The translations under genes were made by a program, and so were the position numbers. A stretch of DNA of 64,000 bases from an uncultured Gammaproteobacteria bacterium. Its GTDB lineage: Bacteria > Patescibacteriota > Patescibacteriia > Magasanikbacterales > GWA2-37-8. The stretch is taken from contig CAZWKA010000006.1 in NCBI GenBank assembly GCA_964634875.1, positions 12,173 through 76,172 of the forward strand, written 5' to 3'. Each line of letters starts with the position of its first letter. The first letter of the stretch is position 1. The notes under the pieces were generated by a model, which saw nothing but the letters and a program-made list of their open reading frames with translations, did no database searches and had not been told where the DNA came from. Positions 14,975 through 56,160 of the stretch are shown here, piece after piece.

Positions 14975-15010
14975 CCCGCGGGAACACAGGTTCCCGCGGG
15001 TGGGGGGGGG
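14975..15010 (-). repeat. GC hairpin plus G9 homopolymer (C9 in the sense of the downstream minus-strand gene)
   Basis: cccgcgggaac-acag-gttcccgcggg followed by g x9 at 15002-15010. Confidence 0.8.
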
Positions 15011-15031
15011 TAGATGTCTGCCGCGACGCGT

Positions 15032-15499
15032 TTAGTCGGGCTTGATCGTCGGGGGGTTGTGGTCGGTGACCACGATGGTGCAGTCGATGGGCGACTTCTT
15101 GGGATCGAGCAGTCGGCTTGTCCGCAGAGACCCCACGTTCGGCTCGTCCACGCCCATCGGGTCCCCGCACCGGAAGAGCTCGAAGGTGCTCTTCTTCCAG
15201 TCAGAGCCTGATCTGTCCGTCACGGGCGCGAAATAGAATTCGACCAACTGTCGGGCCGATTCCTGGACGCCGTAGTGCTCGACCGTGAACACCAGCTCCG
15301 TACCCGAGGCCTCGGTGTACTGCATGGCGACATCGGCAAAGTGGATGATCCGCCAGGGGTGCGGCGAGGTTGCGCTCAAAATGCCGAACGCGCTGGTCTT
15401 GGTTGAAGATCCTCGCTCGTCCAATTTGTTGGGCAGACCGCTGCTGCAACCAACAGTGAGTACGGCTGCAGCAAGACCAAATATCCGCAATTGTTTCAT
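15032..15499 (-). CDS. Predicted lipoprotein in high-GC island 2
   Basis: MKQLRIFGLAAAVLTVGCSS signal peptide with lipobox; the ORF-track start at 15544 lies upstream of the signal peptide. Confidence 0.55.
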   Translation of the reverse strand: MKQLRIFGLAAAVLTVGCSSGLPNKLDERGSSTKTSAFGILSATSPHPWRIIHFADVAMQYTEASGTELVFTVEHYGVQESARQLVEFYFAPVTDRSGSDWKKSTFELFRCGDPMGVDEPNVGSLRTSRLLDPKKSPIDCTIVVTDHNPPTIKPD

Positions 15500-15587
15500 C
15501 GTATTCTCCCCATGGCAAAGTGCCAGGCCAATACTGTCTAGCATGAAAAAGCCCGGTTGTCAACGGTAATTCAATAACAAAATTTTG

Positions 15588-15625
15588 CCTAAAGACTTGA
15601 CAAATAAGGGTGCGCAGGTAGGATG
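15588..15625 (+). promoter_or_regulatory. Putative promoter TTGACA-16-TAGGAT
   Basis: cTTGACAaataagggtgcgcaggTAGGAT, then an AAGGAG Shine-Dalgarno before the ATG at 15652. Confidence 0.4.
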
Positions 15626-15651
15626 GGTCAAACTATCACAAGGAGTCCGCC

Positions 15652-16089
15652 ATGAGAGCTTTATTTGCCGCTGCAGGTCTATTGGTTGCGTCCGGATGCA
15701 GTCTTGGTTGGGACTTTCTTTTCAGACAGAAGGAGGGCGTTGTCGATACTGAGCCTCTGCCCGCAGGTTCGCACGTCTATTGTACGGTCAAAGAAAATGC
15801 GGACGGAGGTAACCGCCCCTTCTTTATTAACAACGATCGGATCGCTTCTGGTCGGTGGCGGTACAGTGTTGAGGGCATGCTACTGTGTGAGTGTGAAGGT
15901 TGGCACCGTCTTAAGGTGTTTGCGTATGAGGACAGGCCGGTTGGCGAACGCAGCCGCATCGGCGACTATGTCTTCGTAGGCACCCGGAAACTTGAGGCAT
16001 TCAGTGTCGAGGTGCCGCCCGGCCTGAAGCCCGGCCAGTCATTCTGGCTCGAAGGCGAGTGTGTCGAAGACCTGCAGTCGACCAAATGA
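15652..16089 (+). CDS. Predicted lipoprotein in high-GC island 2
   Basis: MRALFAAAGLLVASGCS lipobox; AAGGAG Shine-Dalgarno. Confidence 0.55.
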   Translation: MRALFAAAGLLVASGCSLGWDFLFRQKEGVVDTEPLPAGSHVYCTVKENADGGNRPFFINNDRIASGRWRYSVEGMLLCECEGWHRLKVFAYEDRPVGERSRIGDYVFVGTRKLEAFSVEVPPGLKPGQSFWLEGECVEDLQSTK

Positions 16090-16099
16090 TTGATTAGAA

Positions 16100-16129
16100 A
16101 GCCGTCCGGTGATGCGACACCGGACGGCT
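16100..16129 (+). other. 12-bp perfect GC hairpin (HP1) in a 3' UTR
   Basis: agccgtccggtg-atgcga-caccggacggct. Confidence 0.8.
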
Positions 16130-16160
16130 ACCATCTCTCTACCCTTACAATTTTTTAAAT

Positions 16161-16194
16161 AAAAAACACCCTCGAATTTTCCGAGGGTGTTTTG
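16161..16194. terminator. A/T-flanked terminator (HP2)
   Basis: aaaaaacaccctcg-aatttt-ccgagggtgtttt. Confidence 0.6.
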
Positions 16195-16203
16195 TTACAA
16201 GTA

Positions 16204-16722
16204 TTATTTTTTCATTATTTCCTCTTTTTTCATGCCTCCTCCGCCGCAGCAAGCTCCTTTCATTCCCGCGCCGCAACATCCGTCCGCCATCGCACCTTCC
16301 ATTTTGTCGTTGCAAGTACCCTCCTTACCAGCAGCCAGGCATTTTGGGCAAACACATTCAGCGCGAACTAGACGATATTCTCCGGCCCCAACACCCATAA
16401 GCGCGAGACAGCTGCCCAGAAGTACTATCGGCATGAAAAAACCAGTAAAAGGACCGCTCCGATGGGCGGTAAGCATGGCTACAATCATGATGATGGCAAG
16501 CCAGCTACCAGCAATGCGGGCAAAGACACCGAGGAGCACCATAAGTCCGCCAACCACTTCGGCTGCCCCAACAAAATATGCCCAAAACATGGGTAGTGGA
16601 AAGCCAAGCCCGGTGAACATGCCAATTGTCATTTCAGGGTGGTCAAAAAGTTTTCCGTATCCTTGGTAAATGAAGACGATACCGACCGCGACGCGCAGGG
16701 CCAAAAGTCCCCACGATTCCAT
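16204..16722 (-). CDS. DoxX-family membrane protein with a Cys-rich C-terminal tail
   Basis: DoxX-like helices (LRVAVGIVFIYQGYGKL..); tail CVCPKC...GTCND...DGCCGAGMKGACCGGGG; likely ATG start at MESWG (the ORF-track start at 16758 is further upstream). Confidence 0.7.
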   Translation of the reverse strand: MESWGLLALRVAVGIVFIYQGYGKLFDHPEMTIGMFTGLGFPLPMFWAYFVGAAEVVGGLMVLLGVFARIAGSWLAIIMIVAMLTAHRSGPFTGFFMPIVLLGSCLALMGVGAGEYRLVRAECVCPKCLAAGKEGTCNDKMEGAMADGCCGAGMKGACCGGGGMKKEEIMKK

Positions 16723-16787
16723 TTTTGGGTTACACCGGAGCATGTGCTTGCACAGCATACTTTTTAGTTTAAAAATTAATGAATCTT

Positions 16788-20542: not shown

Positions 20543-20905
20543 ATGAAACGTTCGCACGTCGCCCTCCTGGCCCTTTCTCTGCCTGCTTGCGTAGCCGGTC
20601 CTCTCTCGCTCCGCCCGGGCGTGGCGCCCGAGACCTGCTACCAGGCCAGCCAGCGCTTCGCCTGGGCGCCCGACTCCCGCAGGTGGGTCGCTTGCTTGCC
20701 GGACAATGGTGCGGTGACCAAACAGGGATACCGCCTGAAGATGGCCTTCGTCCCTGGCGACAACGGTTGTCGCCTCGAGGCTGCCCCGGACAACGGTCTT
20801 CACTCGCGGCTCTGGCCCAATGTTCCCACGGCTAACATCGATGACACCGGCGAGATGCCGTTCGCTGTCGATGGACAGCCCTACGTCTGCAAGATCGAGA
20901 ACTAG
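20543..20905 (+). CDS. Predicted lipoprotein in high-GC island 3
   Basis: MKRSHVALLALSLPACVAG lipobox; GAGG Shine-Dalgarno; promoter TTGACA-17-TATGTA at about 20454-20482. Confidence 0.55.
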   Translation: MKRSHVALLALSLPACVAGPLSLRPGVAPETCYQASQRFAWAPDSRRWVACLPDNGAVTKQGYRLKMAFVPGDNGCRLEAAPDNGLHSRLWPNVPTANIDDTGEMPFAVDGQPYVCKIEN

Positions 20906-20957
20906 CCCCCCCCACGACTCCTGGGTCAGCGCCGTTTTGGCTGCAGACCCAGGAGTT
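20906..20957 (+). repeat. C8 tract immediately after the stop codon, followed by an 11-bp-stem GC hairpin
   Basis: tag-cccccccc-acg-actcctgggtc...gacccaggagt. Confidence 0.8.
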
Positions 20958-21035
20958 GCTTTGTTTATGGAGGTAGCTTGACAAGACATCTTTTTTGCCG
21001 CTGTATAGGGGGTGCTTTTGAAAAGGAGTACCGCC

Positions 21036-21446
21036 ATGAAAGACAGTCGTTTACTCGGCAAAATTCTGTTCGTCCTCCTGTCTGCCTGTGCATCACAACC
21101 GCCGATCGTGTCTTCGCCTGTATCCAGCAGCCAACCCCAGGTGGAGCTTGCTTCAAACCAGTTGGTTGAGCCTCCAGATGGCTGTGCCGGTGATCGTGAG
21201 CGCCTTGGTACGTCGGTCGCTGGCGTGGGTACAATCTGTCGTTCCAGCCGGGATCAGTTCCCCCTCTTTATTAAGCTGACAGCCGAGGAAGATGGCTGCC
21301 GCCTTGTCACCAAGGTCTATCGCGGTGAAGAGGAGGTGCTTCATCTCAACACGCTGGCGAGCGAGATCGTGAAGAAGGGGTCGGCATACCATCTTTCAAC
21401 GAACCAAGAAAATTTTGTCTGCGAATCAGTGCGGTCGGAGGAATAA
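21036..21446 (+). CDS. Predicted lipoprotein in high-GC island 3
   Basis: MKDSRLLGKILFVLLSACAS lipobox; AAGGAG Shine-Dalgarno; a sixth CTTGACAAG copy at 20977-85 forms its -35. Confidence 0.55.
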   Translation: MKDSRLLGKILFVLLSACASQPPIVSSPVSSSQPQVELASNQLVEPPDGCAGDRERLGTSVAGVGTICRSSRDQFPLFIKLTAEEDGCRLVTKVYRGEEEVLHLNTLASEIVKKGSAYHLSTNQENFVCESVRSEE

Positions 21447-22901: not shown

Positions 22902-23489
22902 ATGTGTGATCGTAACAAACTGCCTTCGGGAAACACTGGTGAAGAACGAGACTTCTGGGACTGGGTGGGTGCTGCTTACGCCAACCTGCTCGTCGACCAC
23001 GACGAAGTTGTCTTTCCTGTCTCGTTCGAGTGGTTGGTGTGCGATGAGGGTGAGGTAATCTACGGGTTCGAGTTGCTCGCTGACGACACGCTCATTTCAA
23101 CGCCATCTTCCGGCAACCCGCTTGGCAAAACGTATGAAGAACGCCTCTTCTGGAGTTGGGTTCGAGATGTCTACTACGATGTTCTCGGCCAGGTCTTTTT
23201 TGATCGTTTTCGTGTGGAACGCTTGAAGCCCGTTTCGACTCCGGGAGTTGGAGAGGAGGAGTGGTTTTATGAGCTGCTAACCGGTACGTGGATCAAACCC
23301 GTACCCGTCGAGGAACTCCGTCTCGCTGAGGCGGTACCGTTGTCTACTGATGACGTAGTTACGGGCCCGAAGCAGATCTTCTACATCCAGAACCAGGCGC
23401 CTGCCAAGCCGGATGGACCGCCTGCCCCCTTCCACTTCGTAGGACGCATCGTCCTCATGGGCGATAAATACGTCCTTGCTCAGGAGTGA
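22902..23489 (+). CDS. Hypothetical protein with an internal duplication (moderately high GC)
   Basis: Repeated motif EERDFWDWVGAAYANLL / EERLFWSWVRDVYYDVL; no known domain recognised. Confidence 0.5.
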   Translation: MCDRNKLPSGNTGEERDFWDWVGAAYANLLVDHDEVVFPVSFEWLVCDEGEVIYGFELLADDTLISTPSSGNPLGKTYEERLFWSWVRDVYYDVLGQVFFDRFRVERLKPVSTPGVGEEEWFYELLTGTWIKPVPVEELRLAEAVPLSTDDVVTGPKQIFYIQNQAPAKPDGPPAPFHFVGRIVLMGDKYVLAQE

Positions 23490-23643: not shown

Positions 23644-23715
23644 GCCCCCGTAGTTCAACGGATCGAACAAACCCGTCCTAAGGGTGAGATAGAGGTTCAA
23701 TTCCTTTCGGGGGCA
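23644..23715 (+). tRNA. tRNA-Arg (anticodon CCT)
   Basis: Acceptor GCCCCCG/CGGGGGC, D-arm GTTC..GAAC, anticodon loop GTCCTAA, T-loop TTCAATT. Confidence 0.75.
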
Positions 23716-23951
23716 CGATAGGAATTGAAGGGGGAGGGTTTGGGAACCGGAAGGTTCCCACCGCTGCTGAGGAGAGCCCACGAGAGGGCGGAAGCCCTGT
23801 TCGTGAAGGATCCGCCGCGGCGGGGACGCGTGAAACTTCCTTTCGAGGGAACGAGCGAAGTTCAAAGTTAAAAGCGAAAAACTAAAAATAATTGAATCGC
23901 CTAGAGCGATACTTTAATTTTAAACTTTGCGTTTTTCACTTTTAGCTTTCC
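23716..23951 (+). other. GC-rich, hairpin-dense 236-nt spacer between two tRNAs (candidate structured RNA, unidentified)
   Basis: gggaaccggaaggttccc, gggcggaagccc and several other stems; no ORF; not a tRNA. Confidence 0.2.
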
Positions 23952-24022: not shown

Positions 24023-24042
24023 CACATTTGGTTGGTTTTTAT

Positions 24043-25539: not shown

Positions 25540-25557
25540 ACACTAAGCTGTTTTTTG

Positions 25558-26998: not shown

Positions 26999-27056
26999 GT
27001 TTTTCTGGCCTGCTTGAGCCGTAGTTTTGCTGACCGTTCGTTTACAACCAAACCGA

Positions 27057-27108
27057 TATGTAGTGGAACGGCAGCTTGAAAGATCGATCTGGTGTTCCAC
27101 TACATATC
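27057..27108 (+). other. 14-bp perfect inverted repeat with a 24-nt loop in the operon leader
   Basis: atatgtagtggaac...gttccactacatat, just before the Shine-Dalgarno and the ATG at 27122. Confidence 0.75.
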
Positions 27109-27121
27109 ACAAGGAAAACCT

Positions 27122-27634
27122 ATGAGCCTCTACACTGTCCAAGAAATCGTGATCGGTTCTGATGCTGTACCCAAAGTGATGGCCGGCAAGCTCGCCTGCC
27201 CCAAAGACATCATCGTTGGCCATCCAGCCAAATCGCTGGTGAATAGGCAGCCCTGCGGCTTGAGCGAAATCAGGCAGGGTGCCTGCAACCGGCGGAAGGC
27301 CGCCCGTAAGGGTCGCCCCAGCGGTGACATCTGGATCGGTATCGAGAATGGTGTGGTGTGGCAAGGTGGTAAGTGGTTTGACCTGGCCGCCGTTGCCGGA
27401 TGTAACCGAGCAGGCCGTGAAGTGCTCGTCTGGTCGCTGGCGATCGAGATCCCCACGTGGGTGGTGACCGCAGTTAGAAGACACGGTTTCGATACGACGA
27501 CCATCGGTCTCATGTATGCGGGAGCTGTTAAAGGTGTTGATCACCAGGACATCCACGCTCACCTCACCAACGGCGCCCTGAAACGTGAACAGATCCTGGC
27601 CCAGGCCATCGTAGTCGTGCGGGCTCAGCTGTAG
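27122..27634 (+). CDS. yjjX: Non-canonical purine NTP phosphatase (inosine/xanthosine triphosphatase, YjjX/DUF84-like)
   Basis: SLVNRQPCGLSEIRQGACNRRKAARK....DIWIGIENG parallels E. coli YjjX SxVxxQPxGxxETRxGAxNRxxxAR...DFWVAIEAG. Confidence 0.65.
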   Translation: MSLYTVQEIVIGSDAVPKVMAGKLACPKDIIVGHPAKSLVNRQPCGLSEIRQGACNRRKAARKGRPSGDIWIGIENGVVWQGGKWFDLAAVAGCNRAGREVLVWSLAIEIPTWVVTAVRRHGFDTTTIGLMYAGAVKGVDHQDIHAHLTNGALKREQILAQAIVVVRAQL

Positions 27635-27676
27635 AATTTAGAAAAGCTACGAATTGAAAGGATATAGGTAAAAAGC

Positions 27677-28717
27677 ATGCGTCGTAAGCAGAACATCATC
27701 CTCTACTTCCCGACGATGAAGAAGCTCGCCTACTCCATCGTTGCGAAGCTCCGCAGACTCAAGAACAATAAGTTCGTCGTGCGTGACCCCAAGATGTCTG
27801 AGTTCGCAGACGGGTCGCCGACGAGCGCGATCCCGAATGTCCGTGGCGCTGAGGTCACGGTGGTGGCAGACATGCAGGGTGAGCACCCCAGCATTGCCTT
27901 CATGCGGCTCGCCGAGATCCTCGACGCGCTTGAGCGGGCAGGTGTAGCTGCGGTCACGGTGGTGATGCCGTACCACAGTTTTTCTCGCTCCGATCGCAAG
28001 GCCAAGGGCCGCGAGTCGATCATGGTGGCTCGAATCGCGACTTTCCTCAAGACCTACAACACCCTCAAACGCATCATCACCATCGATCTCCACTCCGACC
28101 AAATCGAGGGGATGTACACTGGCATCAGTGTTACACACCTCTCCGGGTCGCTCATCTTCGCGCCGAAGTGCCGTCCCATGGCCAAGAAGTCCAAGGATCC
28201 GCTCGTCACGATCGCTGGGGACGTCGGTGGTGCTCGCCGGACGCGCAACACCGCTCGTCTTACTGGTGGTCACACAGTGATGATGATCATGGATAAGACT
28301 CGCCCCAAGAAGAACGAGGCCGAGATTATGGGAATTCTTTGTGACCGTAAGGTCGTCAAAGGACTTCAGGCGGTCATCTGCGATGATGTCGTTGATACCG
28401 CTGGCACTCTGGTTGGGGTCATCAAAGAGGCTAAGAAGATGCGGCTGCGGGCGACTACTGTCATGGCGACGCACGGTGTCCTATCACCAAGTAAGGGGAC
28501 GACAGCGATCAGCAAGCTGCGTGCGAGCGGTGTCACCAAGATCGTCCTCTCTGACACAATCCCCCTGTCGGCCGCGAAGAAGGCAGAGGCGGGCGCTTTG
28601 ATCGAAGTCGTCAGTTGCGCTGATCTGCTTGCCTCAACGTTGCATGCCATTACTACCCCGAATGGCAGCGTCAGCCGCCTCTACGACAATGCCCGCGCCG
28701 CCGCCAAGCGCGCCTAA
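27677..28717 (+). CDS. prs: Ribose-phosphate pyrophosphokinase (PRPP synthetase)
   Basis: DLHSDQIEGMY (cf. DLHA.QIQGFF), GDVGGARRTR, and the PRPP-binding loop ICDDVVDTAGTL. Confidence 0.8.
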   Translation: MRRKQNIILYFPTMKKLAYSIVAKLRRLKNNKFVVRDPKMSEFADGSPTSAIPNVRGAEVTVVADMQGEHPSIAFMRLAEILDALERAGVAAVTVVMPYHSFSRSDRKAKGRESIMVARIATFLKTYNTLKRIITIDLHSDQIEGMYTGISVTHLSGSLIFAPKCRPMAKKSKDPLVTIAGDVGGARRTRNTARLTGGHTVMMIMDKTRPKKNEAEIMGILCDRKVVKGLQAVICDDVVDTAGTLVGVIKEAKKMRLRATTVMATHGVLSPSKGTTAISKLRASGVTKIVLSDTIPLSAAKKAEAGALIEVVSCADLLASTLHAITTPNGSVSRLYDNARAAAKRA

Positions 28718-28740
28718 CACACATAAGGAGAACGTCAGTC

Positions 28741-29292
28741 ATGAGCAATATGATAGCTCACTACCTGTCCCAGTTTCTCGAACCTATCCTGGACTTTCCG
28801 CGGCCAGGCATCGTGTTCCGCGACATCAGCCCCCTGCTCCGCAACCCCGAGGCCAAGGAGACGTGCTTCCTCGAGATGGGCCGTCAGCTCGAGCAGGCGG
28901 GCATCGGCTTCGACCTGGTCGGGATGATCGACGCCCGCGGCTACATCTTCGGCGAGCCCATCGCCCAGCGGCATCGTCGCGGCTCCATCATGGTGCGGAA
29001 AGCCGGTATGATGCCGGTGCGCAAGGGCGCCAAGCTCGTGCGGAAGTCGTATGGTCTTGAGTATGGCACGAGCACCATCGAGATGCAGGACTACGCCGTC
29101 GAGAAGGCTCAGCGGGTCCTCATTGTCGACGACGGCCTCGCGACCGGCGGCACGGCCAAGGCAACGGCTGAGCTCGTCGAGGAACTTGGTGGTATCGTCG
29201 CCGGCTTCCTCTTCGTCTTCGAGATTGAGTCCTGTGGTGGACGACAGATGCTTGACGGCTACCAGGTCGTCAGCATCGTCAAGTTCCCGTAG
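28741..29292 (+). CDS. apt: Adenine phosphoribosyltransferase
   Basis: ILDFPRPGIVFRDISPLL.., VLIVDDGLATGGT PRTase motif; 183 aa. Confidence 0.85.
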   Translation: MSNMIAHYLSQFLEPILDFPRPGIVFRDISPLLRNPEAKETCFLEMGRQLEQAGIGFDLVGMIDARGYIFGEPIAQRHRRGSIMVRKAGMMPVRKGAKLVRKSYGLEYGTSTIEMQDYAVEKAQRVLIVDDGLATGGTAKATAELVEELGGIVAGFLFVFEIESCGGRQMLDGYQVVSIVKFP

Positions 29293-29295
29293 TTA

Positions 29296-29305
29296 CCCCC
29301 CCCCC
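29296..29305 (+). repeat. C10 homopolymer 3 nt after the apt stop codon
   Basis: tag-tta-cccccccccc. Confidence 0.9.
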
Positions 29306-29315
29306 GCTTCGTTCC

Positions 29316-29391
29316 CCCTGGCCGCAGGCGTTCTTCTATAGAGCGCCTCGGCCAACACTAAAAACACCCCAATATACTGGGGTGTTTTTAG
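29316..29391 (+). repeat. Repeat unit A (HP1 GC hairpin plus HP2 terminator), a roughly 80%-identical copy of 29909-29986
   Basis: ggccgcaggcg-ttcttctatagag-cgcctcggcc ... aaaacacccca-atatac-tggggtgttttt. Confidence 0.8.
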
Positions 29392-29460
29392 TTTCTACCC
29401 TTGACGCATGCCCAATTTTCTGCTACCACTATTCGGTGCCGCTGTAAGGCGAGGGGGAAC

Positions 29461-29908: not shown

Positions 29909-29986
29909 TTTCGGCCGCAGGTTCTCTTCATAAGAGTGCCTCGGCCACTTCTAAAAACACCTCGATACTATCGGGGTGTTTTTATT
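29909..29986 (+). repeat. Repeat unit B (HP1 plus HP2), paralogous to 29316-29391
   Basis: ggccgcagg-ttctcttcataagagtg-cctcggcc ... aaaaacacctcgata-cta-tcggggtgttttt. Confidence 0.8.
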
Positions 29987-30105
29987 TTGCTTACCAAACC
30001 TTATATTACGTAGGTATATTTAATAGTAGTTTATAAGTATCGTTTCCCTTGTCTAGTTTTATCTCTAGTCGGTTTTCCCTTTACATCGTTGCATTAAAAT
30101 TAATT

Positions 30106-32472: not shown

Positions 32473-32523
32473 CGCTTTGAATAAGAGACTTATATCTCCT
32501 CTCTGTTTAATTTACAGAAAGGA

Positions 32524-49000: not shown

Positions 49001-51731
49001 TTTTGTTAATAATGGGGGGTATTACGTAAAAATGGTTCAGGCCCCCGATGGTTTGCCTGTTATGGTTCACTACGATCCCAGCTTTGGAAATTTTTATGGC
49101 GGGAAATGTCGGGGTACCGGTTGCGCTACTTCATCTGAGTATCCTAGTTTTGGAACAATTGCTTTCATGAATAATGCGCAGGCGTATAATGGTTTTGCGG
49201 GTTTAGCTATGGGTACAAATGGTGTGGCGGTCGCTAGTTATTATGATCGTTTTAATCATACAGTATATGTCGCTCGATGTAGCGCGTCCAATAACTGTAG
49301 TTCATGGTCAAATACAACCATTGATTCTGATGTAGGGTTTCACGCCCTGCCACCCGATGGCGGAGCTTGGACTTCGATGACTATCGGAGCAGATGGAAAT
49401 CCTGTGGTCTTCTATCATCGGTTTGTTGGTACCGACGCTAGCCCCTTTATATACCGCTGCGTAGATAACAACTGTGTACAAACGAGCGCTAAACCAATCT
49501 CCGCTGGCTCATATGATGGTTTTAATTATGTCCGTGGCACATCTTTGATAAAAGCCCAGAACGGTGAGCTCATTGCTTTTATGTACAAACAAGATACGGG
49601 CGATTTGGTCTTGTGGCGGGGGTGTGCCCAGAATAGCGATGTGTTTGGGACGGGTGGGTGTACGCAAGTCGTCGCGTATTCAGGTTCTTCACTGGGTTCG
49701 CGCGGCCAATATTTTTATCAAATTTATTCCCGAGAGATCTACGCACAACAGGCGTATCTCTCTGGGTTTGACCTTGCAGAATCATATTTAACCGATGATG
49801 CGACTTTGGTGCCGGGTGAAGTTGTGGCGCTCGATCAAAATAATCCTAACAAAGTAATTAAAGCCGATAGTGTTAACTATCCATTAGCTATCGGTATAGT
49901 TTCAACTAAACCCGGTCTTTTGTTGACTGAATGGTCGGATGATGACCCGATATTTACCAGTACTACGCGAAAAGTTTCTTTGGCGCTCGCAGGTCGTGTG
50001 CCGCTCAAGGTGTCAGGCAGTAATGGTCCGATCGTGATTGGTGATAAACTTTCCGCCTCGACAATTCCTGGTGTTGCCGTCAAGGCATTGCCCGGAAGCA
50101 TAACGATTGGTGTGGCTATGGAAAACTTTGCCGGAGGCATGGGTACGATCACAACATTTGTTAATGTTGATTCGTCTGGTGCGAATGGCTCGCAGGTAAA
50201 AGGAGCATTAACCATCGATACAACCCAGAAAAATATTATTGTTGGCTCAACTACTACCCCGTACAGTTTTTCTTTGAACGGTAATCTGTCTTTGCTCTCA
50301 ACTTCGATGAACACGCTTTCTTTTGCAACGACGACGCTGCTCACGACTAGTATTCCTGACTTTGAAAACGCAAAAGCCTTTATTTTAAATGCCCAGAATT
50401 TTTCACCAACCAGCACTCCTGACCGTATTCTTTTTTCACTTCGTTCACATGATACACCGGTATTTTCAGTTAGTGCTAATGGTGATGTTAACGCAGCCGG
50501 TAATTATTATGGCCAAAGTGCTACGTTTGGTTCGTCGACTAACCCTGGTGACTTAGCTGAACGAGTGGATATTGCTGCAGACGATGTTGTAGAAGCGGGA
50601 GATGTCATGATTGTTGACCCGTATAGTCCAGACACCTATCGAAGAAGCGCTGAAGCGTATGATGGGCGGGTCGCCGGGGTTATCTCGAGTAATCCGACAA
50701 TCGTAGTCGGCAGGGGAAAAACTGACCATACAGCCAACCTGGCAATGGTGGGCCGTGTTCCGATTAAGGTGGTAAACGAAAATGGTTCAGTTAACCGAGG
50801 CGACCTGCTCGTCGCTTCATCAAAGCCGGGATATGCCATGAAATATGATCCTACGCTTGATAACAGTCAGAAGATGGTCGGGGTTATTGGTGTCGCGCTC
50901 GATCCACTTATGGCAGAACAGGGAAAAGTCATGGCGCTTATCAGGACTGGTTGGGCGTATAGCCAAACTAAAAATATTAGTTCGTTGCAAACCACAATAG
51001 AACAACTTGTTTCTGTTCAAGGAATTAATCTGGATGAAAATACCGAGGATCTTAAAGTTTCACAAAAAGACGGCTCGCTGGTGTATGAAGGAGGAAATCT
51101 AGATCTACGTGGTAATAAAATTTTAAACGTGGCTTCGATTGGAGGAAAAGAAAATGCGTGGTCAATTGATGAAGGAGGGCGCTTTATCACCCAATTAATC
51201 ACATCGGTCGGAACGCAAAGTATGTATGCACTACAGTCGCCTGCTTCGGAATTTGTTTTCTCAAGCTCGTCGCAGCTAGTTGCTGGCGAAGCGCGAATAA
51301 TTTTTGATCAAGCGGTACAAGAAATAATTGATCCGACGACGCCGCTTAAAGTGAGTGTTACCCTGACATCCTCGGGTGTCGGTGGTGTCTATGTCAGTGA
51401 AAAAACAGCCCAAGGGTTTGTGGTTATGCAGCTCGGTGGAACGGGCGGTGCAGCGACGTTTGACTGGGTTGTGGTAGCGAAACGACGCGAAGAGAATGCG
51501 ATAGCTCCACCTACAGATTCAGAGGCTCAGAAGGTCGACGCTCTTCTTGAGAAAGATGAAGAAACAGGTGCGCCGCCGGAACAAGCTGCTACCAGCTCAG
51601 CGAGTGTTGAAGAAGCGCTGGGTATGAGTGAAGCGGGGCTTACTACCACCTCTTCGACGGAGCTCGGCACTGAATCTAGCACAGCGACCTCTTCAATTCC
51701 CGCAAATGAAATTCAGACGCAAGCGCAATAA
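46095..51731 (+). CDS. Giant secreted adhesin-like protein 2 (1878 aa), mosaic paralog of the preceding gene
   Basis: N-terminal, Hep/Hag and C-terminal blocks about 85% identical to gene 1; different central paired-Cys repeat region. Confidence 0.85.
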   Translation: MGQKNIFQNSAILSRVFLPIGLFLFFLGALFYSQIAVQAAPAAPPSIVSYQGKILDDTNSPISTALNIKFLLYDAQTAGNVLYTAAGTLATPTALSITPSSGIFVVNLGDADTNPIEPSIFKNNTNVYLEVVVGAETLSPRRQITAAPYALNALALNGYSLETVSSSAYIPLSDAQGRFQFNGVTSTNLVATGTSTLATTTIVSTTIAQANITNLAINGTVTGLSLGSLSGTGVLAFIANSQTFSGANTFSATTTFTTSTIASSTLTQANIMALTVNGTLSLPANSVTDFMIPDTITAANYLLLTGGTLAGNLALGNNNISGINDLSLGGTLTNSGVSIFTSGFIAPASSTVGGQLHANGPVYASSTLDVDGRALFSSGFIANSASTINAGLAIGDTLSVGATSTFTTTTMASSSIANANIGNLVVNGTCSGCLSGAALLAANQTFTGTNIFSVTTTFSATSSFSQALGIATTTPSAQLTLNGGNILAIGTYVGSGAVPYSGVGTRLMWIPSRAAFRAGYVNGSQWDAANVGVYSAAFGENNTVSGDRAFAAGTGNTVSQTGSVAFGGSNTVSVTYSAAFGASNIINAGGGGFAVGLSNTVSGASSAAAIGTGNTSAGGTGSTAIGANNSAGGTSAIALGSRISVSGNNSVGIGLDTNSRTLSQNNTLAIMGGNVGIGTLAPGYTLAVTGTLAVSATSTFATTTMASSTIVSLNATNGYIGTLTVGSCTGCGAAAAGASLTDNQNFTGFNTFSATTTFTNRSGIVINTSTAYALGRLHIDPSGNIFTSGTIQLAGNLMPLRGVATSTAIAASATSTSSTLASVGDTGQNPAAMVGGDGFPIIAYYSSSTHGLMILHCTSVNCSSSDAPIQIDGLDEDVGVQPSIALGQDGFPVMTYYSVTSTNLRFAKCYNFSCSQVTTTTIDATANTGYYSSVVIGVDGNPIVAYQRTGQLYVLQCFTADCSSVSTPAFVNNGGYYVKMVQAPDGLPVMVHYDPSFGNFYGGKCRGTGCATSSEYPSFGTIAFMNNAQAYNGFAGLAMGTNGVAVASYYDRFNHTVYVARCSASNNCSSWSNTTIDSDVGFHALPPDGGAWTSMTIGADGNPVVFYHRFVGTDASPFIYRCVDNNCVQTSAKPISAGSYDGFNYVRGTSLIKAQNGELIAFMYKQDTGDLVLWRGCAQNSDVFGTGGCTQVVAYSGSSLGSRGQYFYQIYSREIYAQQAYLSGFDLAESYLTDDATLVPGEVVALDQNNPNKVIKADSVNYPLAIGIVSTKPGLLLTEWSDDDPIFTSTTRKVSLALAGRVPLKVSGSNGPIVIGDKLSASTIPGVAVKALPGSITIGVAMENFAGGMGTITTFVNVDSSGANGSQVKGALTIDTTQKNIIVGSTTTPYSFSLNGNLSLLSTSMNTLSFATTTLLTTSIPDFENAKAFILNAQNFSPTSTPDRILFSLRSHDTPVFSVSANGDVNAAGNYYGQSATFGSSTNPGDLAERVDIAADDVVEAGDVMIVDPYSPDTYRRSAEAYDGRVAGVISSNPTIVVGRGKTDHTANLAMVGRVPIKVVNENGSVNRGDLLVASSKPGYAMKYDPTLDNSQKMVGVIGVALDPLMAEQGKVMALIRTGWAYSQTKNISSLQTTIEQLVSVQGINLDENTEDLKVSQKDGSLVYEGGNLDLRGNKILNVASIGGKENAWSIDEGGRFITQLITSVGTQSMYALQSPASEFVFSSSSQLVAGEARIIFDQAVQEIIDPTTPLKVSVTLTSSGVGGVYVSEKTAQGFVVMQLGGTGGAATFDWVVVAKRREENAIAPPTDSEAQKVDALLEKDEETGAPPEQAATSSASVEEALGMSEAGLTTTSSTELGTESSTATSSIPANEIQTQAQ

Positions 51732-51734
51732 AAA

Positions 51735-51823: not shown

Positions 51824-52744
51824 TTAGGGACATGATTTAGTCCCAATCGTGAAGTCGACAGGAGGAAGCGTCTGTGCCACACCTGTTTCATCAAGGTATT
51901 CAACCTGCCAGAAGTAGCGAATACACCGTCCGGGATAGGCGTTCGACTTCGACGGCGGAAGAGCCTTGCGTGGAATCGTGAAGTAAGTGTGGATCACACC
52001 CGTTTTGGCGTATGTATCACACTTGTCTTCGATGTAGTTGCGGATTGGCTTTCCGTTCTCGTCAGCGTAGCTAACGGTGCCATTCTCGAACGTAGTCTCG
52101 GCCCAGAGCAGCGTGTGGAGGAGCTCTCGAGCCTGCCAGCCAAGCGATACACGTAGGGTGAAGCCTGTCGGCAGTTCGTAGCCGCAATCTACAGCTGGAT
52201 CCTGGGGTACCTCGACCACATTGTGTTCAAGTTCTGGTAGCCACCCGCCTTTGATTGGAACGGTGCGAGGCCACTCCACATCAACGAGGTCGAGGCGTTT
52301 ACCGCTTTTGAAGTCGAGTGTCCAGACGCCGCGTCGAGGACTGGCGTTCGTTGCGCTGCCAATCCCCACGCTCACGGCGAGCGGGTCGAAGATGTCGAGG
52401 CCGTGGTAGCCGTAGGCCAGATTGTTCAGAGCCCCTTCTGCATTGCAGTCAGAGCTCCAGCCGCAAAAGAACACGACGCCATTCTTGCCGGCTTGTTCCC
52501 CTTCCGGTGTATAGCCGGGCTGCCCCATCTTCTCTTTGTGCAAGGTGAGAGGGTCGGCAGTATCGATGCCGTTTACAGCCAGATACAAGGCATGGCTCCG
52601 TGTGCTGTTGCTAAGCTTTAGATCCAAAGGAAGTGGCTGTTGCCCCGCGGCATTCACTCGCAGCTCGTTAAGCAGCTCATGCATGGCTGATTCGTCTAGG
52701 GTGCAACCTGTCAGCGTAAGAAGAATCACGATAGATGCTTTCAT
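51824..52744 (-). CDS. Predicted lipoprotein (306 aa) in high-GC island 6
   Basis: MKASIVILLTLTGCT lipobox; GACGGAG Shine-Dalgarno; about 60% GC. Confidence 0.55.
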   Translation of the reverse strand: MKASIVILLTLTGCTLDESAMHELLNELRVNAAGQQPLPLDLKLSNSTRSHALYLAVNGIDTADPLTLHKEKMGQPGYTPEGEQAGKNGVVFFCGWSSDCNAEGALNNLAYGYHGLDIFDPLAVSVGIGSATNASPRRGVWTLDFKSGKRLDLVDVEWPRTVPIKGGWLPELEHNVVEVPQDPAVDCGYELPTGFTLRVSLGWQARELLHTLLWAETTFENGTVSYADENGKPIRNYIEDKCDTYAKTGVIHTYFTIPRKALPPSKSNAYPGRCIRYFWQVEYLDETGVAQTLPPVDFTIGTKSCP

Positions 52745-52993
52745 GACAATACTCCGTCAGAAAGTTGTTTTTATCCTTAAATCTATTAATTAAGGGCAAA
52801 AAAACTTTCTTACGAAGATGACTTGTAAAAAGAACGAACCGCTTATACTACACTATAATCGTCAAAAAGTCAAGGTTAAAGGCTTTCTCCATCGCTACCA
52901 ACCCATACGCTGAGTTGTTTGGGATGAGGCCGTTCGAACAAGGGGCTCCTTGTGCTGCCCGAAAGTATCGGGCAGCGAACGGCGGTTTCAGCA

Positions 52994-53437
52994 CTACTTG
53001 CGGAGTTGTGCTGTGGTGTGAAGGTCTGCGCTGAGAGAGTTGCCGCAGTTGGCCTGCAAAAACACGACAGAGCCGGGGATGACGCGATAAGCGCCGGCGG
53101 CCAAACTGAGCTCGAGCGTGGCACCGGGATCCGGGTTCGACCACGATGCGTGAGCGTGGTGGATGGCTTTCCCGGGCTTACTGCCGCGGTCCTCGTAGGC
53201 TTGGATCGATATCTGCTTACCGGAACACGATAGGTATCCAGCAATAGCATCTCCGGTAAGAACGGCATAGTGAAGGCCTTTGCCGGTCAAGGTAGGCCGG
53301 AGCTTCACTGTCTGATCGAGCACCACCAGAACTGCCACCGTATGAGCATCAATCTGGCGAGAGGCTGTGATCAAACACTGGTGGGCGCAGCCTGTGAATA
53401 GTCCGCTGAGAACAAGAGAGATCAACGGTTTGCGCAT
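52994..53437 (-). CDS. Predicted lipoprotein (147 aa) in high-GC island 6
   Basis: MRKPLISLVLSGLFTGCA lipobox; GGGAGG Shine-Dalgarno. Confidence 0.5.
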   Translation of the reverse strand: MRKPLISLVLSGLFTGCAHQCLITASRQIDAHTVAVLVVLDQTVKLRPTLTGKGLHYAVLTGDAIAGYLSCSGKQISIQAYEDRGSKPGKAIHHAHASWSNPDPGATLELSLAAGAYRVIPGSVVFLQANCGNSLSADLHTTAQLRK

Positions 53438-53684
53438 GTAATCCTCCCTGTGGCTATCGCCGAATGGCTGTTAAAATAGTGACAGGTTTAGATCCGAGTG
53501 TCAAACAAAATAAACTCGTAGTGAGGTTGGCTTTTTAGTGATCTAAAGTAAAATAAAGTCCAACATCCACGGCTGTAATAGTCAGTTTTGATTAGGCTTG
53601 TTGAAAGGGGTTGACTTTTTGACCAAAAGTGTTCTATCCTATATCGGACAGAAAACAGGTCTAAGTCCTTTCCAAGGAGGGGTG

Positions 53685-53990
53685 ATGCGATTTTTTTGTA
53701 GCGCGCTGATTCTGATGTCTTTAGCGCTGCCTGCGGATGCGAGGCAGCGAAGGAGGCAGACGAAACAAACGCAAACGAATTTGATCACTTGTCCGGACGG
53801 CTATCAGTTGGCCACGCATCGAGATCAGCAGATCGACATGATGCTGGGTTGCCGTCCGAATGATGGAAGTGAGTTGCAGGAGGGCAACAGCGTTACCATC
53901 AACTGTCCCGCAGGTCAGGAGGGGCATCTGCAAGAGACAATTCCCCGGCAACAGGGCTACCTCTACTGTCTGCCCGCATCCTCGCACTAA
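53685..53990 (+). CDS. Small secreted Cys-containing protein in high-GC island 6
   Basis: MRFFCSALILMSLALPADA signal peptide; GGAGG Shine-Dalgarno; promoter TTGACT-17-TATCCT. Confidence 0.45.
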   Translation: MRFFCSALILMSLALPADARQRRRQTKQTQTNLITCPDGYQLATHRDQQIDMMLGCRPNDGSELQEGNSVTINCPAGQEGHLQETIPRQQGYLYCLPASSH

Positions 53991-54002: not shown

Positions 54003-54033
54003 CGTTGAGGTCGGCGACTGTCCGACCTCAACG
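54003..54033 (+). other. 12-bp perfect GC hairpin (HP1)
   Basis: cgttgaggtcgg-cgactgt-ccgacctcaacg. Confidence 0.8.
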
Positions 54034-54052
54034 CTCTTAAAAATATTAAACT

Positions 54053-54082
54053 AAAACCGCTCTGTACTAACAGAGCGGTTTT
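54053..54082. terminator. A/T-flanked terminator (HP2)
   Basis: aaaaccgctctgt-acta-acagagcggtttt. Confidence 0.6.
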
Positions 54083-54091
54083 AGTTGTGTG

Positions 54092-54165
54092 TGGACCGTA
54101 CCGGGATCGAACCGGTGACCTCTTCCATGCCATGGAAGCGCGCTACCAGCTGCGCTAACGGCCCG
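54092..54165 (-). tRNA. tRNA-Ala (anticodon GGC)
   Basis: Minus strand reads GGGCCGTTAGCGCAGCTGGTAGCGCGCTTCCATGGCATGGAAGAGGTCACCGGTTCGATCCCGGTACGGTCCA; G3:U70 pair; anticodon loop ATGGCAT. Confidence 0.8.
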
Positions 54166-54457
54166 ATATTTTTAACGTTATTAGTATAGCATTTTTTAAA
54201 TCAAAGTCAATAATTGAGGGGTACGCCGCTAGTGGCTACAACAAACTGGGTGGTGTGGCCCAGATACCTTCCTGCAACCGTGCCGTTAGCTGTCCTTGGG
54301 TTGTTCGAAGTAAACAGATGAGGTAAAGACGAAACTTTTTCTTTTTTATATAGAATTCCTCTATGTCTAGAGTACTAGCACGGCGGCAAAACACCCAAGC
54401 TCTTGCCGTATTAGGGTGCTTTAGGTATAGTGTGGGAGTTTACTCCATATTATTGTT

Positions 54458-55528
54458 ATGTCATTTTCAATCGGTATCGTCGGTCTCCCTAACGTCGGCA
54501 AGTCAACACTTTTTAATGCCCTCACCCGCACCAAACAGGCTAATGTCCAAAATTATCCATTCTGTACTATCGACCCCAATGTTGGTGTAGTGGAAGTTCC
54601 GGATGTTCGTTTGCAAAAATTAAGCGATATTTCTGGTTCTAAAAAAATAATTCCTACCACGATCGAGTTTGTGGATATTGCTGGTCTGGTTAAAGGCGCC
54701 AGTGAAGGTGAGGGGCTTGGCAATAAATTTTTATCCCATATCCGCGAAGTTGATGCGATTGCCCATGTCGTGCGTAATTTTGAAGACAACAATATTACCC
54801 ATGTCCATAATCGCGTGAATCCGCTTGAAGATGCTGAGATCATTAATACAGAATTAGTGCTGGCTGATTTGCAAGTAGTGGGGAAGCGTCTTGAAACTAC
54901 TAAGAAGTCTGCCAAAGGTACCGCATTAAAAGAGTTGCAGCCGGAAATTGACCTTCTCCAAAAAATATACGACCAGCTCCAACAAAATAAAGCCGCCCGG
55001 GGGCTAGAATATACTGAGGACGAAACCGTGCTTCTAAAAACACTTCAGCTTATCACGATGAAGCCGATGATGTATGTAGTCAACGTCGCTGAAAGCGGTG
55101 GTGCCGCTGCAACGGTTGAAGCTGGTGTTGCTCAAATTGAAATTTGTGCTCGTCTCGAAGCAGAACTTGCCGACCTCTCACCCGAAGAAGGTAAAGAATA
55201 CTTAAAAAGTTTAGGGGTTGAAAAAACTGGTCTTGATAAACTGATTACCGCAGGGTACCAACTGCTTAATTTGATTACCTACTTTACTTCCGGAGAACCG
55301 GAAACGCGTGCTTGGACGGTGAATGTGGGTACAAAAGCGCCCCATGCTGCCGGAGTCATCCATACCGATTTTATCAAAGGCTTTATTAAAGCGGACGTTG
55401 TCGGTTGGGAAGACTTTGTTGCGCTCGGTGGTTGGGGTAAGTTAAAAGAAAGTGGTAAGCTCCGGTTGGAAGGAAAAGAATATATTGTGAAAGACGGGGA
55501 TGTTTGTTACTTCCACGTGAATACCTAA
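54458..55528 (+). CDS. ychF: Ribosome-binding ATPase YchF (Obg-family GTPase)
   Basis: MSFSIGIVGLPNVGKSTLFNALT.. G1 motif; C-terminal TGS domain; 356 aa. Confidence 0.92.
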   Translation: MSFSIGIVGLPNVGKSTLFNALTRTKQANVQNYPFCTIDPNVGVVEVPDVRLQKLSDISGSKKIIPTTIEFVDIAGLVKGASEGEGLGNKFLSHIREVDAIAHVVRNFEDNNITHVHNRVNPLEDAEIINTELVLADLQVVGKRLETTKKSAKGTALKELQPEIDLLQKIYDQLQQNKAARGLEYTEDETVLLKTLQLITMKPMMYVVNVAESGGAAATVEAGVAQIEICARLEAELADLSPEEGKEYLKSLGVEKTGLDKLITAGYQLLNLITYFTSGEPETRAWTVNVGTKAPHAAGVIHTDFIKGFIKADVVGWEDFVALGGWGKLKESGKLRLEGKEYIVKDGDVCYFHVNT

Positions 55529-55583
55529 CGGCATCCTAGATTAAAAATCAATGTTTAAACATTGATTTTTTATTACCTCGAAA

Positions 55584-55612
55584 GCTTGACAAAAGAGTGT
55601 TTTTGTGCTATA
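55584..55612 (+). promoter_or_regulatory. Perfect consensus sigma70 promoter TTGACA-17-TATAAT
   Basis: gcTTGACAaaagagtgtttttgtgcTATAATgc. Confidence 0.65.
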
Positions 55613-55676
55613 ATGCTTTGTTTAGTCTATATCAAAATGGCTAATTTTAGCCACAAGGTTAACCTAAATCACGTTC

Positions 55677-55725
55677 AAAAGCTGGTTTTTGTGTGTATGT
55701 AGCGTACCTATAAAAACCAGCTTTT
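55677..55725 (+). other. 13-14-bp inverted repeat with a 21-nt loop in the leader of the 55758 ORF
   Basis: aaaagctggttttt...aaaaaccagctttt. Confidence 0.75.
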
Positions 55726-55757
55726 ACCCGGCGCAAGCCATTACCCAGGAGTCGTGT

Positions 55758-56084
55758 ATGCTCGTTTGTTCGTTGCGTAATCCTCCGCCCCAGTCCCTGA
55801 GCCCCTTCGGTGGTGGGCTCGTGACCCTCATCGGAGCAAAGCTCGAGTTCGAGTACCAGAGCAAGGGGTCGCGGCTGAAGGTCAGCTTGGCGAAGTACGG
55901 CCTCGCCCCCTACCGGCGCAAGGGGCCGCCGAGATCGAAGCTGATCGTCACGGTCAGCGAGATCATCGCCGACCAGTACGGCACCCGCGTCACAGGCACG
56001 TTTCAGCGTTGCCCTGGCGCCCTCCCAACGGTGGTGAGCGCTCGCCTGCCGACCGGCAGCAGCGTGCTCTGGAACATCGAGTAG
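55758..56084 (+). CDS. Small hypothetical protein in high-GC island 7
   Basis: AGGAG Shine-Dalgarno 7 nt before the ATG; followed by a C10-A8 tract and a hairpin plus T-run; overlaps an antisense ORF, so the strand call is tentative. Confidence 0.35.
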   Translation: MLVCSLRNPPPQSLSPFGGGLVTLIGAKLEFEYQSKGSRLKVSLAKYGLAPYRRKGPPRSKLIVTVSEIIADQYGTRVTGTFQRCPGALPTVVSARLPTGSSVLWNIE

Positions 56085-56093
56085 CGCTGCTCG

Positions 56094-56160
56094 CCCCCCC
56101 CCCAAAAAAAACGTGTTCTAACGACCCCTGCGGCTTCTGCCTGGGGGTCGCTCTTCTTTT
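56094..56160 (+). repeat. C10 then A8 homopolymer pair, then a GC hairpin and T-run
   Basis: cccccccccc-aaaaaaaa ... cgacccc-tgcggcttctgcct-gggggtcg-ctcttctttttt. Confidence 0.85.

Follow-up and report, generated by a model that had tools for sequence, protein, structure and literature searches.

Poly-C tracts after the stop codons of GC-rich cassette genes in a relative of Candidatus Magasanikbacteria

Introduction

Four runs of eight to ten cytosines (C8-C10, poly-C tracts) follow the stop codons of GC-rich open reading frames (ORFs) in a 64-kb stretch of contig CAZWKA010000006.1. This stretch, 64,000 nt at its full length and called the window below, belongs to the core chromosome of an ultra-small bacterium within the Candidate Phyla Radiation (CPR, Patescibacteria) near Candidatus Magasanikbacteria. 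CPR bacteria are uncultured and host-dependent, and the ways in which they gain, express and insulate accessory surface genes are largely unknown. A preliminary description of the window treated the poly-C tract, a GC hairpin and an A/T-flanked terminator as one recurrent 3' module of foreign genes, which could serve Rho loading or represent a scar of the insertion.

The comparison class for such 3' ends comprises intrinsic terminators, including bidirectional ones, and the poor-U-tract hairpin terminators of GC-rich bacteria. The GC hairpins behind the GC-rich genes (cassette genes below) and the A/T-flanked hairpins of the host genes have exactly this anatomy, and the tracts are a variant of it. 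To our knowledge, replacement of the upstream A-tract by a C homopolymer has not been described as a terminator feature.

Rho utilization (rut) sites share with the tracts an unpaired, YC-rich and G-poor RNA, exposed after translation stops and followed by a possible pause hairpin. Rho primary sites bind 5'-YC, and the preference of Rho for poly(C)/YC is established (PMC12360218). A rut site is a region of 60-80 nt, whereas here 8-10 nt of pure C lie in a spacer of 10-40 nt, strong intrinsic terminators follow immediately, and one of the four cases has no excess of C over G across 78 nt.

Contingency loci (poly-G/C in Campylobacter, Neisseria and Haemophilus; promoter poly-A of mycoplasma vlp genes) are comparable in that G/C runs of 8-10 nt are found here at fast-evolving surface lipoprotein genes of a small-genome, host-dependent bacterium. 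The contingency loci of mycoplasmas and pathogens likewise involve fast-evolving surface lipoproteins. In contrast to them, the tracts stand 3' of the stop codon and not in coding sequence or a promoter spacer, and assemblies of the same sample show no length polymorphism.

Integron cassettes (ORF plus attC) are also small, mostly ORFan genes with an imperfect hairpin, located in slots that vary between close relatives. In the window, by contrast, the genes are dispersed and not arrayed, each has its own promoter-like site, and the hairpins (26-40 nt) lack the R''/R' (RYYYAAC/GTTRRRY) cores of attC. Identity with integron cassettes was rejected, as inspection gave no common core motif and the window has no adjacent integron integrase.

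Processed retrocopies resemble the units in being gene-sized blocks, here GC-rich, with a short 5' leader and a homopolymer end (once C10A8). The units differ in that the tail stands before and not after the terminator hairpin, one of them ends a three-gene operon, and no reverse transcriptase is encoded nearby. Insertion by retrocopying or tailing, recognizable by a homopolymer at the junction and target-site duplications, is not supported: repeats do not exceed the level of shuffled sequence, and the tract is internal to the block.

Poly-C Tracts of the Window

A scan of all homopolymers of at least 7 nt found just four G/C ones in the window (C8, C9, C10 and C10). All four are C in the sense orientation and lie 0-21 nt past a stop codon (TAA plus 21 nt, TAG plus 0, TAG plus TTA and TAG plus 9 nt), in agreement with the preliminary description. 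Its statements on rarity by chance, strand-consistent placement and a link to compositionally atypical genes hold as well. The tracts are real and far from random, and the observation is statistically strong and lineage-specific.

Sixteen ORFs of the window deviate in the GC content of third codon positions (GC3, 0.53-0.85) and show clear codon-position periodicity, while the window has a GC content of 47.7% overall and its host genes a GC3 of ~0.40-0.55 (about 0.45). The four tract owners are the four highest of these by GC3 (0.78, 0.78, 0.83 and 0.85); the chance of this is 1/1820. The 16 ORFs and the four tract loci are listed below; z is the folding z-score of the 3' region.

6123-7155, 15032-16089, 20543-21446 and 22902-23489: GC-rich ORFs in intergenic slots, by GC3 (four of the eight stretches that hold the 16)
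27122-29847, 30942-31583, 51824-53990 and 55758-56084: GC-rich ORFs in intergenic slots, by GC3 (the other four stretches)
15032..15499, minus strand: GC-rich ORFan lipoprotein gene, 155 amino acids (aa), GC1/2/3 0.54/0.47/0.78, lipobox LTVGCSS, stop TAA
15002..15010, minus strand: C9 tract (G9 on the plus strand), 21 nt past the stop, unpaired in the fold
14975..15000, minus strand: cassette GC hairpin cccgcgggaac/gttcccgcggg, 11 bp, without A-tract or T-tract, region z = -5.7
14900..14931, no strand assigned: resident bidirectional terminator A6-hairpin-T6, 10 nt past the stop of host gene 13847-14890
20543..20905, plus strand: GC-rich small lipoprotein gene, 120 aa, GC3 0.78, stop TAG
20906..20913, plus strand: C8 tract immediately after TAG, also in Logan contig L144
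20917..20966, plus strand: cassette terminator, 11-bp GC stem actcctgggtc/gacccaggagt plus inner stem, tail tgctttgttt, z = -5.1
27122..29292, plus strand: GC-rich operon NTPase_I-T (DUF84) - prs - apt, GC3 0.68/0.73/0.83
28741-29292, plus strand: apt, GC3 0.83, stop TAG
29296..29305, plus strand: C10 tract, 3 nt (TTA) after the apt stop; CGCCGGCCTTC at the orthologous position in the sister species
29319..29354, plus strand: GC hairpin after apt, kept in sister genome L059 with a changed inner stem, z = -9.7
29357..29391, no strand assigned: A5-hairpin-T5 bidirectional terminator adjoining the apt GC hairpin, together a 75-nt unit
55758..56084, plus strand: GC-rich ORFan gene, 108 aa, GC3 0.85, stop TAG, within a 715-nt block (55529-56243)
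56094..56111, plus strand: C10 (56094-56103) then A8 (56104-56111), starting 9 nt past the stop
56122..56163, plus strand: intrinsic terminator, gacccc..ggggtc stem plus T-run, also facing the convergent ABC-F gene

Runs of C or G in the window number 211 at length 4, 52 at length 5, 6 at length 6 and none at length 7, dropping about five-fold per step before the runs of 8, 9, 10 and 10. For the whole window a first-order model predicts ~1.2 runs of at least 8 nt and 0.07 of at least 10 nt; extrapolation from the decay of the observed counts gives ~0.3 and 0.01, respectively. The chance that all four would lie within 25 nt downstream of a stop in the sense orientation is roughly 1e-8 (~(45x26/128000)^4). 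Only 8 further C/G runs of at least 8 nt occur in 1.82 Mb of related CPR loci, a set that includes the 64 kb of the window.

Close comparison covered ~73 kb of the window's genome and ~63 kb of its two closest relatives. A fifth case of the same arrangement, one of the 8 further runs, was found in the sister-species contig L003 (CAZINT010000004), where a GC-rich lipoprotein ORF is followed by TAA, 5 nt, C9 (298-306), a 9-bp GC hairpin and a T-rich tail. No motif common to the flanks of the five tracts was seen on inspection, and ~9 kb of further sequence of the window's own genome holds no additional tract. Another of the 8, a homopolymer in a different use, was noted in a more distant relative (L063:12538-12546), where G9 lies 6 nt upstream of an ATG, at the Shine-Dalgarno position.

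The sequence of the window comes from the sequencing run SRR12762304. Logan contigs of this run reproduce three of the four tracts (C8, C10 and C10; none extends over C9), and tract lengths agree between them and the metagenome-assembled genome (MAG), both derived from the one run. The Logan contigs break off at 14947, 28539 and 54135. A search for other samples carrying the tract genes gave none.

A relation of the tracts to replication direction was ruled out, because one of the four lies on the other strand while the cumulative GC skew rises throughout. Judged by position, the tracts are likewise no promoter-spacer element of a gene located downstream or on the opposite strand.

The Spacer in Related Genomes

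In three sister-species assemblies the apt stop is followed by TAG CTA CGCCGGCCTTC GCGCCGTTCCTTTTC, where the window reads TAG TTA C10 GCTTCGTTCCCCCT; along this flank, C10..CCCCCT of the window faces CGCCGGCCTTC..CCTTTT. The hairpin and terminator beyond the tract position are kept in the sister species, with an altered inner stem. A second comparison is provided by the C9-bearing cassette protein of L003 and its same-slot counterpart in L004 (CAZECR010000007), which are 43% identical with a synonymous divergence (dS) of 1.48; dS estimates here and below are saturated and composition-biased. The L004 flank reads TGA CCCCC TGTCGCCCTTT, followed by a hairpin and tgctttc. Since orthologous positions hold CGCCGGCCTTC or C5, the homopolymer is not conserved, whereas a C-rich, G-poor and pyrimidine-rich spacer is, and the homopolymer itself is probably not the selected unit.

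The spacers contain 8-17 C versus 1-6 G and are 61-89% pyrimidine. High-GC3 ORFs have 13.6 C and 9.3 G in the first 40 nt past the stop codon (the two 20-nt bins give Wilcoxon p = 0.007 and 0.003), versus 7.5 C and 7.2 G for host genes. Within 40 nt after stops of ORFs with a GC3 excess above 0.3, runs of at least 5 nt are four of C and none of G, and all five long runs (the four of the window and that of L003) are C in the sense strand. The coding C3-G3 skew does not differ between cassettes (0.11) and host genes (0.09). A transcription-linked C-skew over the cassette coding regions was rejected on this ground, and the C asymmetry is thus confined to the spacer. In all minimum-energy folds the C-run stays single-stranded.

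With some reserve, the C8-C10 runs are understood here as the extreme of a single-stranded, C-rich and G-poor spacer between the stop codon and the cassette terminator, arising from a strand-specific constraint at the RNA level combined with GC pressure and slippage. Under this proposal the spacer would be shaped on the sense (RNA) strand by two forces. One could be the same GC-raising force that would hold the cassette genes at GC3 0.7-0.85, and the occurrence of runs just at the four highest-GC3 ORFs is consistent with such pressure. The other could be avoidance of G or purines, as these would base-pair with the arms of the terminator or resemble a Shine-Dalgarno sequence. If G, A and T are all disfavoured, the spacer would drift to C, and replication slippage could then produce pure runs. 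Its likely role would be to provide 10-40 nt devoid of structure and of ribosome-binding sequence, which may allow the terminator to fold and the transcript end to be insulated; the YC-rich patch could also act as a Rho-loading patch if the organism has Rho.

Several observations weigh against this proposal. The lengths are 8, 9, 9, 10 and 10, with none of 7 and just C5 in an older cassette; this pattern suits runs 'born long' or selected for length better than it suits a composition that drifts. A run is present at just 4 of the 16 high-GC ORFs of the window, and several cassettes have no C-rich spacer (15652: ttgattagaa; 22902: acaaaacaaaaaatc). Outside the genus the excess of C over G is weak (5.2 versus 5.0 in the first 20 nt; genes of the related loci were called by a simple longest-ORF heuristic). 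The proposal presupposes a GC-raising force, the effects on termination, stability and Rho are all inferred, and strong terminators 1-25 nt downstream would make an added Rho role redundant.

In practical terms, poly-C just after a stop, which marks the most GC-rich and apparently youngest cassettes of the window, would provide a handle for finding such genes in MAGs. It would also be a testable 3'-end element, be it for the loading of Rho, the folding of the terminator or the stability of the mRNA. Should the tracts be compositional by-products, the real puzzle would lie in whatever force keeps GC3 at 0.7-0.85 where other genes have ~0.45.

Hairpins and Terminators

Terminator classes were derived by folding the 130 nt after every gene. 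Two classes of 3' end were found: host genes carry an A-tract/hairpin/T-tract element, and high-GC ORFs carry longer GC hairpins without an A-tract, frequently followed by a tail like gctcttc or tgctttg. Folding bears out the GC hairpins after the tract genes; the z-scores of the 3' regions range from -5.1 to -9.7, except -1.7 for 56082-56170. Pairing of the tract with its own G-rich Shine-Dalgarno or terminator arms was considered and rejected, being absent from the folds and inconsistent across cases. The remaining elements compared here are as follows.

16100..16194, no strand assigned: cassette hairpin 16100-16129 (after ORF 15652-16089), then resident terminator 16163-16194 of DoxX (minus strand); no poly-C, z = -7.7
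29913..29987, plus strand: second hairpin-plus-terminator unit, 72% identical to the unit after apt, located after ORF 29461-29847; no poly-C
54003..54086, no strand assigned: cassette hairpin 54003-54033 after ORF 53685-53990; no poly-C, z = -8.9
54049-54086, no strand assigned: resident terminator downstream of tRNA-Ala (minus strand), following cassette hairpin 54003-54033

Host-type elements lie at 14900-14931, 16163-16194, 29357-29391, 29952-29987 and 54049-54086. They have the GC stem-loop and T-rich tract of an intrinsic terminator, as do cassette hairpins 20917-20966 and 56122-56163; hairpin 56122-56150, with a T-run of its own, is an intrinsic terminator of the ordinary kind. Cassette hairpins 14975-15000, 16100-16129, 29319-29354 and 54003-54033 have no clean T-tract.

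A-tract/hairpin/T-tract elements directly follow the convergent host genes 13847-14890, DoxX (16204-16758) and tRNA-Ala (54091-54164). The ychF/ABC-F junction of L003 and L004 holds no cassette and a single bidirectional terminator. At the same junction of the window, the 715-nt block consists of a new terminator, a perfect TTGACA-17-TATAAT promoter, a leader, ORF 55758-56084, C10A8 and a hairpin with a T-run. Since the second terminators follow convergent host genes and the empty site retains one, the tandem hairpins represent a cassette terminator beside a resident one and not a single device. Consequently, the unitary 3' module of the preliminary description breaks into three parts, one of them the unpaired C-run spacer treated above. 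The A-tract/hairpin/T-tract elements are ordinary bidirectional intrinsic terminators that belong to host neighbours in convergent orientation. The longer GC hairpins, whose C/T-rich tail is weak, have the anatomy of terminators of the lineage-specific cassette genes and would presumably end their transcripts. The tandem arrangement as such exists, but the proposed gap of 15-40 nt is not general (2-5 nt at 29354/29357 and 29946/29952), and the site given as 14975/14906 has three hairpins in a row at 14900-15000.

A 75-nt direct repeat composed of a GC hairpin and an A/T-flanked terminator (29320-29394 and 29913-29987, 72% identical with the structure kept) flanks ORF 29461-29847, a gene missing from the sister genome. 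The arrangement resembles the outcome of slot duplication or of a Campbell-type insertion.

Cassette Genes and Their Origin

The window includes dnaN, dnaA, rnpA, trigger factor, H+-PPase, polA, holA, rmuC, ychF, an ABC-F gene, type IV pilus genes and two giant surface proteins. Its YchF is 94% and 93% identical to those of L003 and L004, respectively (both MAGs), and 62-76% identical to those of named Magasanikbacteria. The GC-rich ORFs between such genes mostly encode secreted proteins or small lipoproteins, and each ORF has a promoter-like site and a hairpin terminator of its own. Most of the 16 products are small, carry a signal peptide and lipobox and fall into no Pfam family; one high-GC block is the NTPase_I-T - prs - apt operon.

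Searches of libraries of 5.8e9 and 1.84e9 sequences showed ORF 55758, ORF 15032 and the cassette protein of L003 to be singletons; ORF 15032-15499 matched only itself among 1.84e9 representative proteins. The search for donors of the cassette genes identified none, and that for relatives of prs and ORF 20543 on viral contigs gave none. Paralogy among cassette proteins was limited to 21036 with L059:3989 (about 25-30% identity, E = 0.01) and to the L003/L004 pair (43%). Sister-species counterparts of the GC-rich ORFs are absent, unrelated or 25-43% identical. ORF 20543, which carries C8, is missing from L059, where the slot holds only the counterpart of 21036, and the 715-nt block of ORF 55758 is absent from L003 and L004. 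The gene rmuC adjoins rpsT in ~50 more distant relatives, and cassettes stand between the two in this genus only.

Against the sister genome, host genes of the window have a dS of 1.5-2.2 (saturated) and a ratio of nonsynonymous to synonymous divergence (dN/dS) of 0.01-0.10. Same-slot cassette genes combine a similar dS (1.3-1.7) with dN/dS of 0.34-0.64; amino acid identity to the sister is 33% for prs and 43% for the NTPase. The cassette GC3 is 0.68-0.84 in both species despite saturated synonymous sites, so the high GC3 is maintained or re-supplied and is not a fading relic.

The apt gene is an exception, with an NG86 dS of 0.53 (host 1.5-2.2) and a fourfold-site difference of 0.30 (versus 0.50-0.73). 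Its single close relative belongs to the sister genome and is 79% identical; its other relatives lie outside the genus, belong to mixed phyla and do not exceed 50% identity (none above 49%). The sharp identity boundaries at the apt start and at its stop and tract point to a more recent exchange of apt. Comparison of 27105-28750 with L059:8394-9984 gave just 40-55% nucleotide identity for NTPase and prs, while the leader before the NTPase and apt after prs are 75-92% identical to the sister with sharp boundaries at gene starts. NTPase-prs-apt is a mosaic operon. Its leader also contains a 15-bp perfect hairpin (27044-27118), ~80% conserved in the sister and without an Rfam match, which is possibly an attenuator or riboswitch-like element.

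Cassette genes end with TAG (7), TAA (7) or TGA (2), and host genes with TAA (23), TAG (5) or TGA (1). High-GC donors would mostly use TGA. Scarcity of TGA is a property of the window as a whole (3 of 45 genes), common to host and cassette genes.

The description of the cassettes as foreign genes stands only in part. Their atypical composition (GC3 0.53-0.85 versus ~0.45) and the absence of 55758 and 20543 from sisters were upheld. A foreign origin is less certain: no donor was found, TGA is as scarce as in host genes, and high GC3 persists at saturated dS. The premise is questionable, and the poly-C genes are better described as ORFan or fast-evolving small lipoprotein and nucleotide-salvage genes. 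These GC-rich, hyper-divergent genes themselves pose a larger question than the tracts: small lipoprotein and salvage genes are dense in conserved intergenic slots of the window and evolve or are replaced far faster than the core genome.

In L003 (900-2180 and 8787-9910), a 3'-half copy of tRNA-Ala was noted beside an integrase gene. It marks a low-GC island of ~9 kb that is inserted at tRNA-Ala(ggc), and the C9 cassette lies just outside this island.

Alternative Explanations of the Tracts

A neutral origin is unlikely, although several observations agree with it. It assumes that the stop-to-hairpin stretch is the only unconstrained GC-rich non-coding DNA in an AT-leaning genome and that short C-runs expand there by slippage without any function. 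The homopolymer is not conserved at orthologous positions, runs occur at the highest-GC3 genes only, the five tracts share no flanking motif, and offsets vary (0-21 nt from the stop, 1-25 nt from the hairpin). However, neutrality does not account for the strict strand bias (five of five long runs are C in sense, and the spacers contain no sense G-run), for the persistence of C-richness and G-poverty across saturated dS, or for the lack of runs of 7. Furthermore, A/T runs in this 52% AT genome reach 8 at most, so that runs of 10 are not easily explained by slippage alone. Preservation of composition rather than of the homopolymer is what the RNA-strand constraint described above would produce. 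A dedicated rut element, to which Rho would bind once the ribosome leaves at the stop, terminating at or after the pause hairpin and insulating neighbours, is improbable. The tract is unpaired, C-rich and placed right after the stop, the GC hairpin without a good U-tract is a possible pause site, and the C/G ratio of the 78-nt windows from the stop (1.94, 1.00, 2.27 and 1.72) falls within the top 1.5-7% in three of four cases (93rd-99th percentile). The fourth window, at 20903 (C/G = 1.0), is at the median, and 8-10 nt is far below the ~60-80 nt engaged by the Rho hexamer. Apart from the pure tract, these windows also contain hairpins. One or two strong intrinsic terminators begin 1-25 nt past the tract, before Rho could act, and the tract is missing from the orthologous apt flank. 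A tblastn search with E. coli Rho (an approximate query sequence) against the 64 kb, ~9 kb more of the genome and related DNA gave nothing meaningful, and literature searches found nothing on Rho in CPR. Switching of the lipoprotein gene or a neighbour by changes in C-run length, as at phase-variable loci, is very hard to sustain. G/C runs of 8-10 are classic slippage-prone tracts, and the genes are small, fast-evolving surface lipoproteins (dN/dS 0.34-0.64). Phase-variable loci have their tract in a coding region or between promoter elements, whereas every tract here is post-stop; the next downstream -35 boxes are ~70-95 nt off with hairpins between, no ORF is shifted in or out of frame, and the two same-sample assemblies agree in tract length.

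Another explanation treats the tract as a birth scar or 3' adaptor: a homopolymer added, or used as microhomology, when a GC-rich ORF was joined into a promoter...terminator slot, and later decaying by C-to-T and other changes. This origin is quite doubtful, although the narrow range of 8-10 nt looks 'born long', one tract reads C10A8, and the window tracts mark apparently youngest units (55758, absent from L003/L004, and 20543, absent from L059). The synonymous divergence of apt, several-fold below that of host genes (NG86 dS 0.53 versus 1.5-2.2), identity to the sister that falls exactly at the apt stop and tract, and older or orthologous spacers that are pyrimidine-rich, as C-to-T decay would leave them, also agree with it. 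On the other hand, the five modules have no target-site duplications; the longest words common to upstream flanks and post-tract sequence are 6-8 nt, as expected from shuffling. C10A8 is internal to the 715-nt block, since the empty site also lacks the hairpin and the AT-rich flank that lie past the tract. In the sister, alignment of the apt flank continues across the tract position, with CGCCGGCCTTC there, and the L003/L004 pair is old (dS 1.48) yet keeps C9/C5. No reverse transcriptase, nucleotidyltransferase or recombinase is linked to the tracts (the integrase in L003 is part of a distinct island at tRNA-Ala), and no donor is identifiable. The scar of non-templated tailing proposed in the preliminary description is not supported, in view of the lack of direct repeats, the tract inside the inserted block, the sister flank aligning through and the old C9/C5 pair. 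A broader version, rather remote, would make C8-C10 the 3' joint of an undescribed CPR process of cassette loading or exchange. GC-rich ORFs would be placed into fixed slots (resident promoter ... resident terminator hairpin) with the homopolymer added at joining or serving as universal microhomology, long at birth and decaying to a pyrimidine-rich spacer. If true, it would explain the marking of the youngest and most GC-rich units, the slots with unrelated or hyper-divergent ORFs in sister species, the duplicated 75-nt hairpin-plus-terminator unit around one cassette, and C10A8; tracts as acquisition joints would hint at a new gene-capture route. A sequencing or assembly artefact, for example two-colour poly-G or chimeric joins, is scarcely credible, even though all window data derive from one sample (SRR12762304). 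At 8-10 nt, the tracts do not reach the length of any assembly k-mer and have continuous unique flanks, two assemblers agree, positions are exact relative to ORF ends, and L003 shows the same arrangement in another species from another project. Tract length, agreeing assemblers and the second species dispose of artefact as a refutation.

Other Features of the Window

An Rfam scan of the window and of two odd non-coding regions returned tRNAs only. At 23644-23860, tRNA-Arg(cct) is followed by a GC-rich, structured-looking insert of ~130 nt, which ends in a second copy of the tRNA 3'-end. The same tRNA-Arg(cct) arrangement, with an exact 27-nt repeat and no Rfam match, occurs in the sister (L059:6470-6690). 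A 1.5-kb segment (24024-25567) directly after tRNA-Ala(cgc), missing from the sister genome, is probably a small tRNA-linked insertion; the C-terminus of its long ORF is HicA-toxin-like.

A perfect tandem duplication of a 32-nt unit with two TTGACA boxes per unit is located at 13744-13807, between polA and a low-GC (0.39) HATPase/STAS-like gene (13847-14890); a Logan contig ends within it. The two giant surface-protein genes (40755-46013 and 46095-51731; 1752 and 1878 aa) are adjoining paralogues with internal segments 71-79% identical and short internal repeats. Around the end of a TrmB-family gene (32542-33264), the palindrome TTGTTTCA(C/T)GTGAAACAA is present three times (32441-32710) and has an operator-like look.

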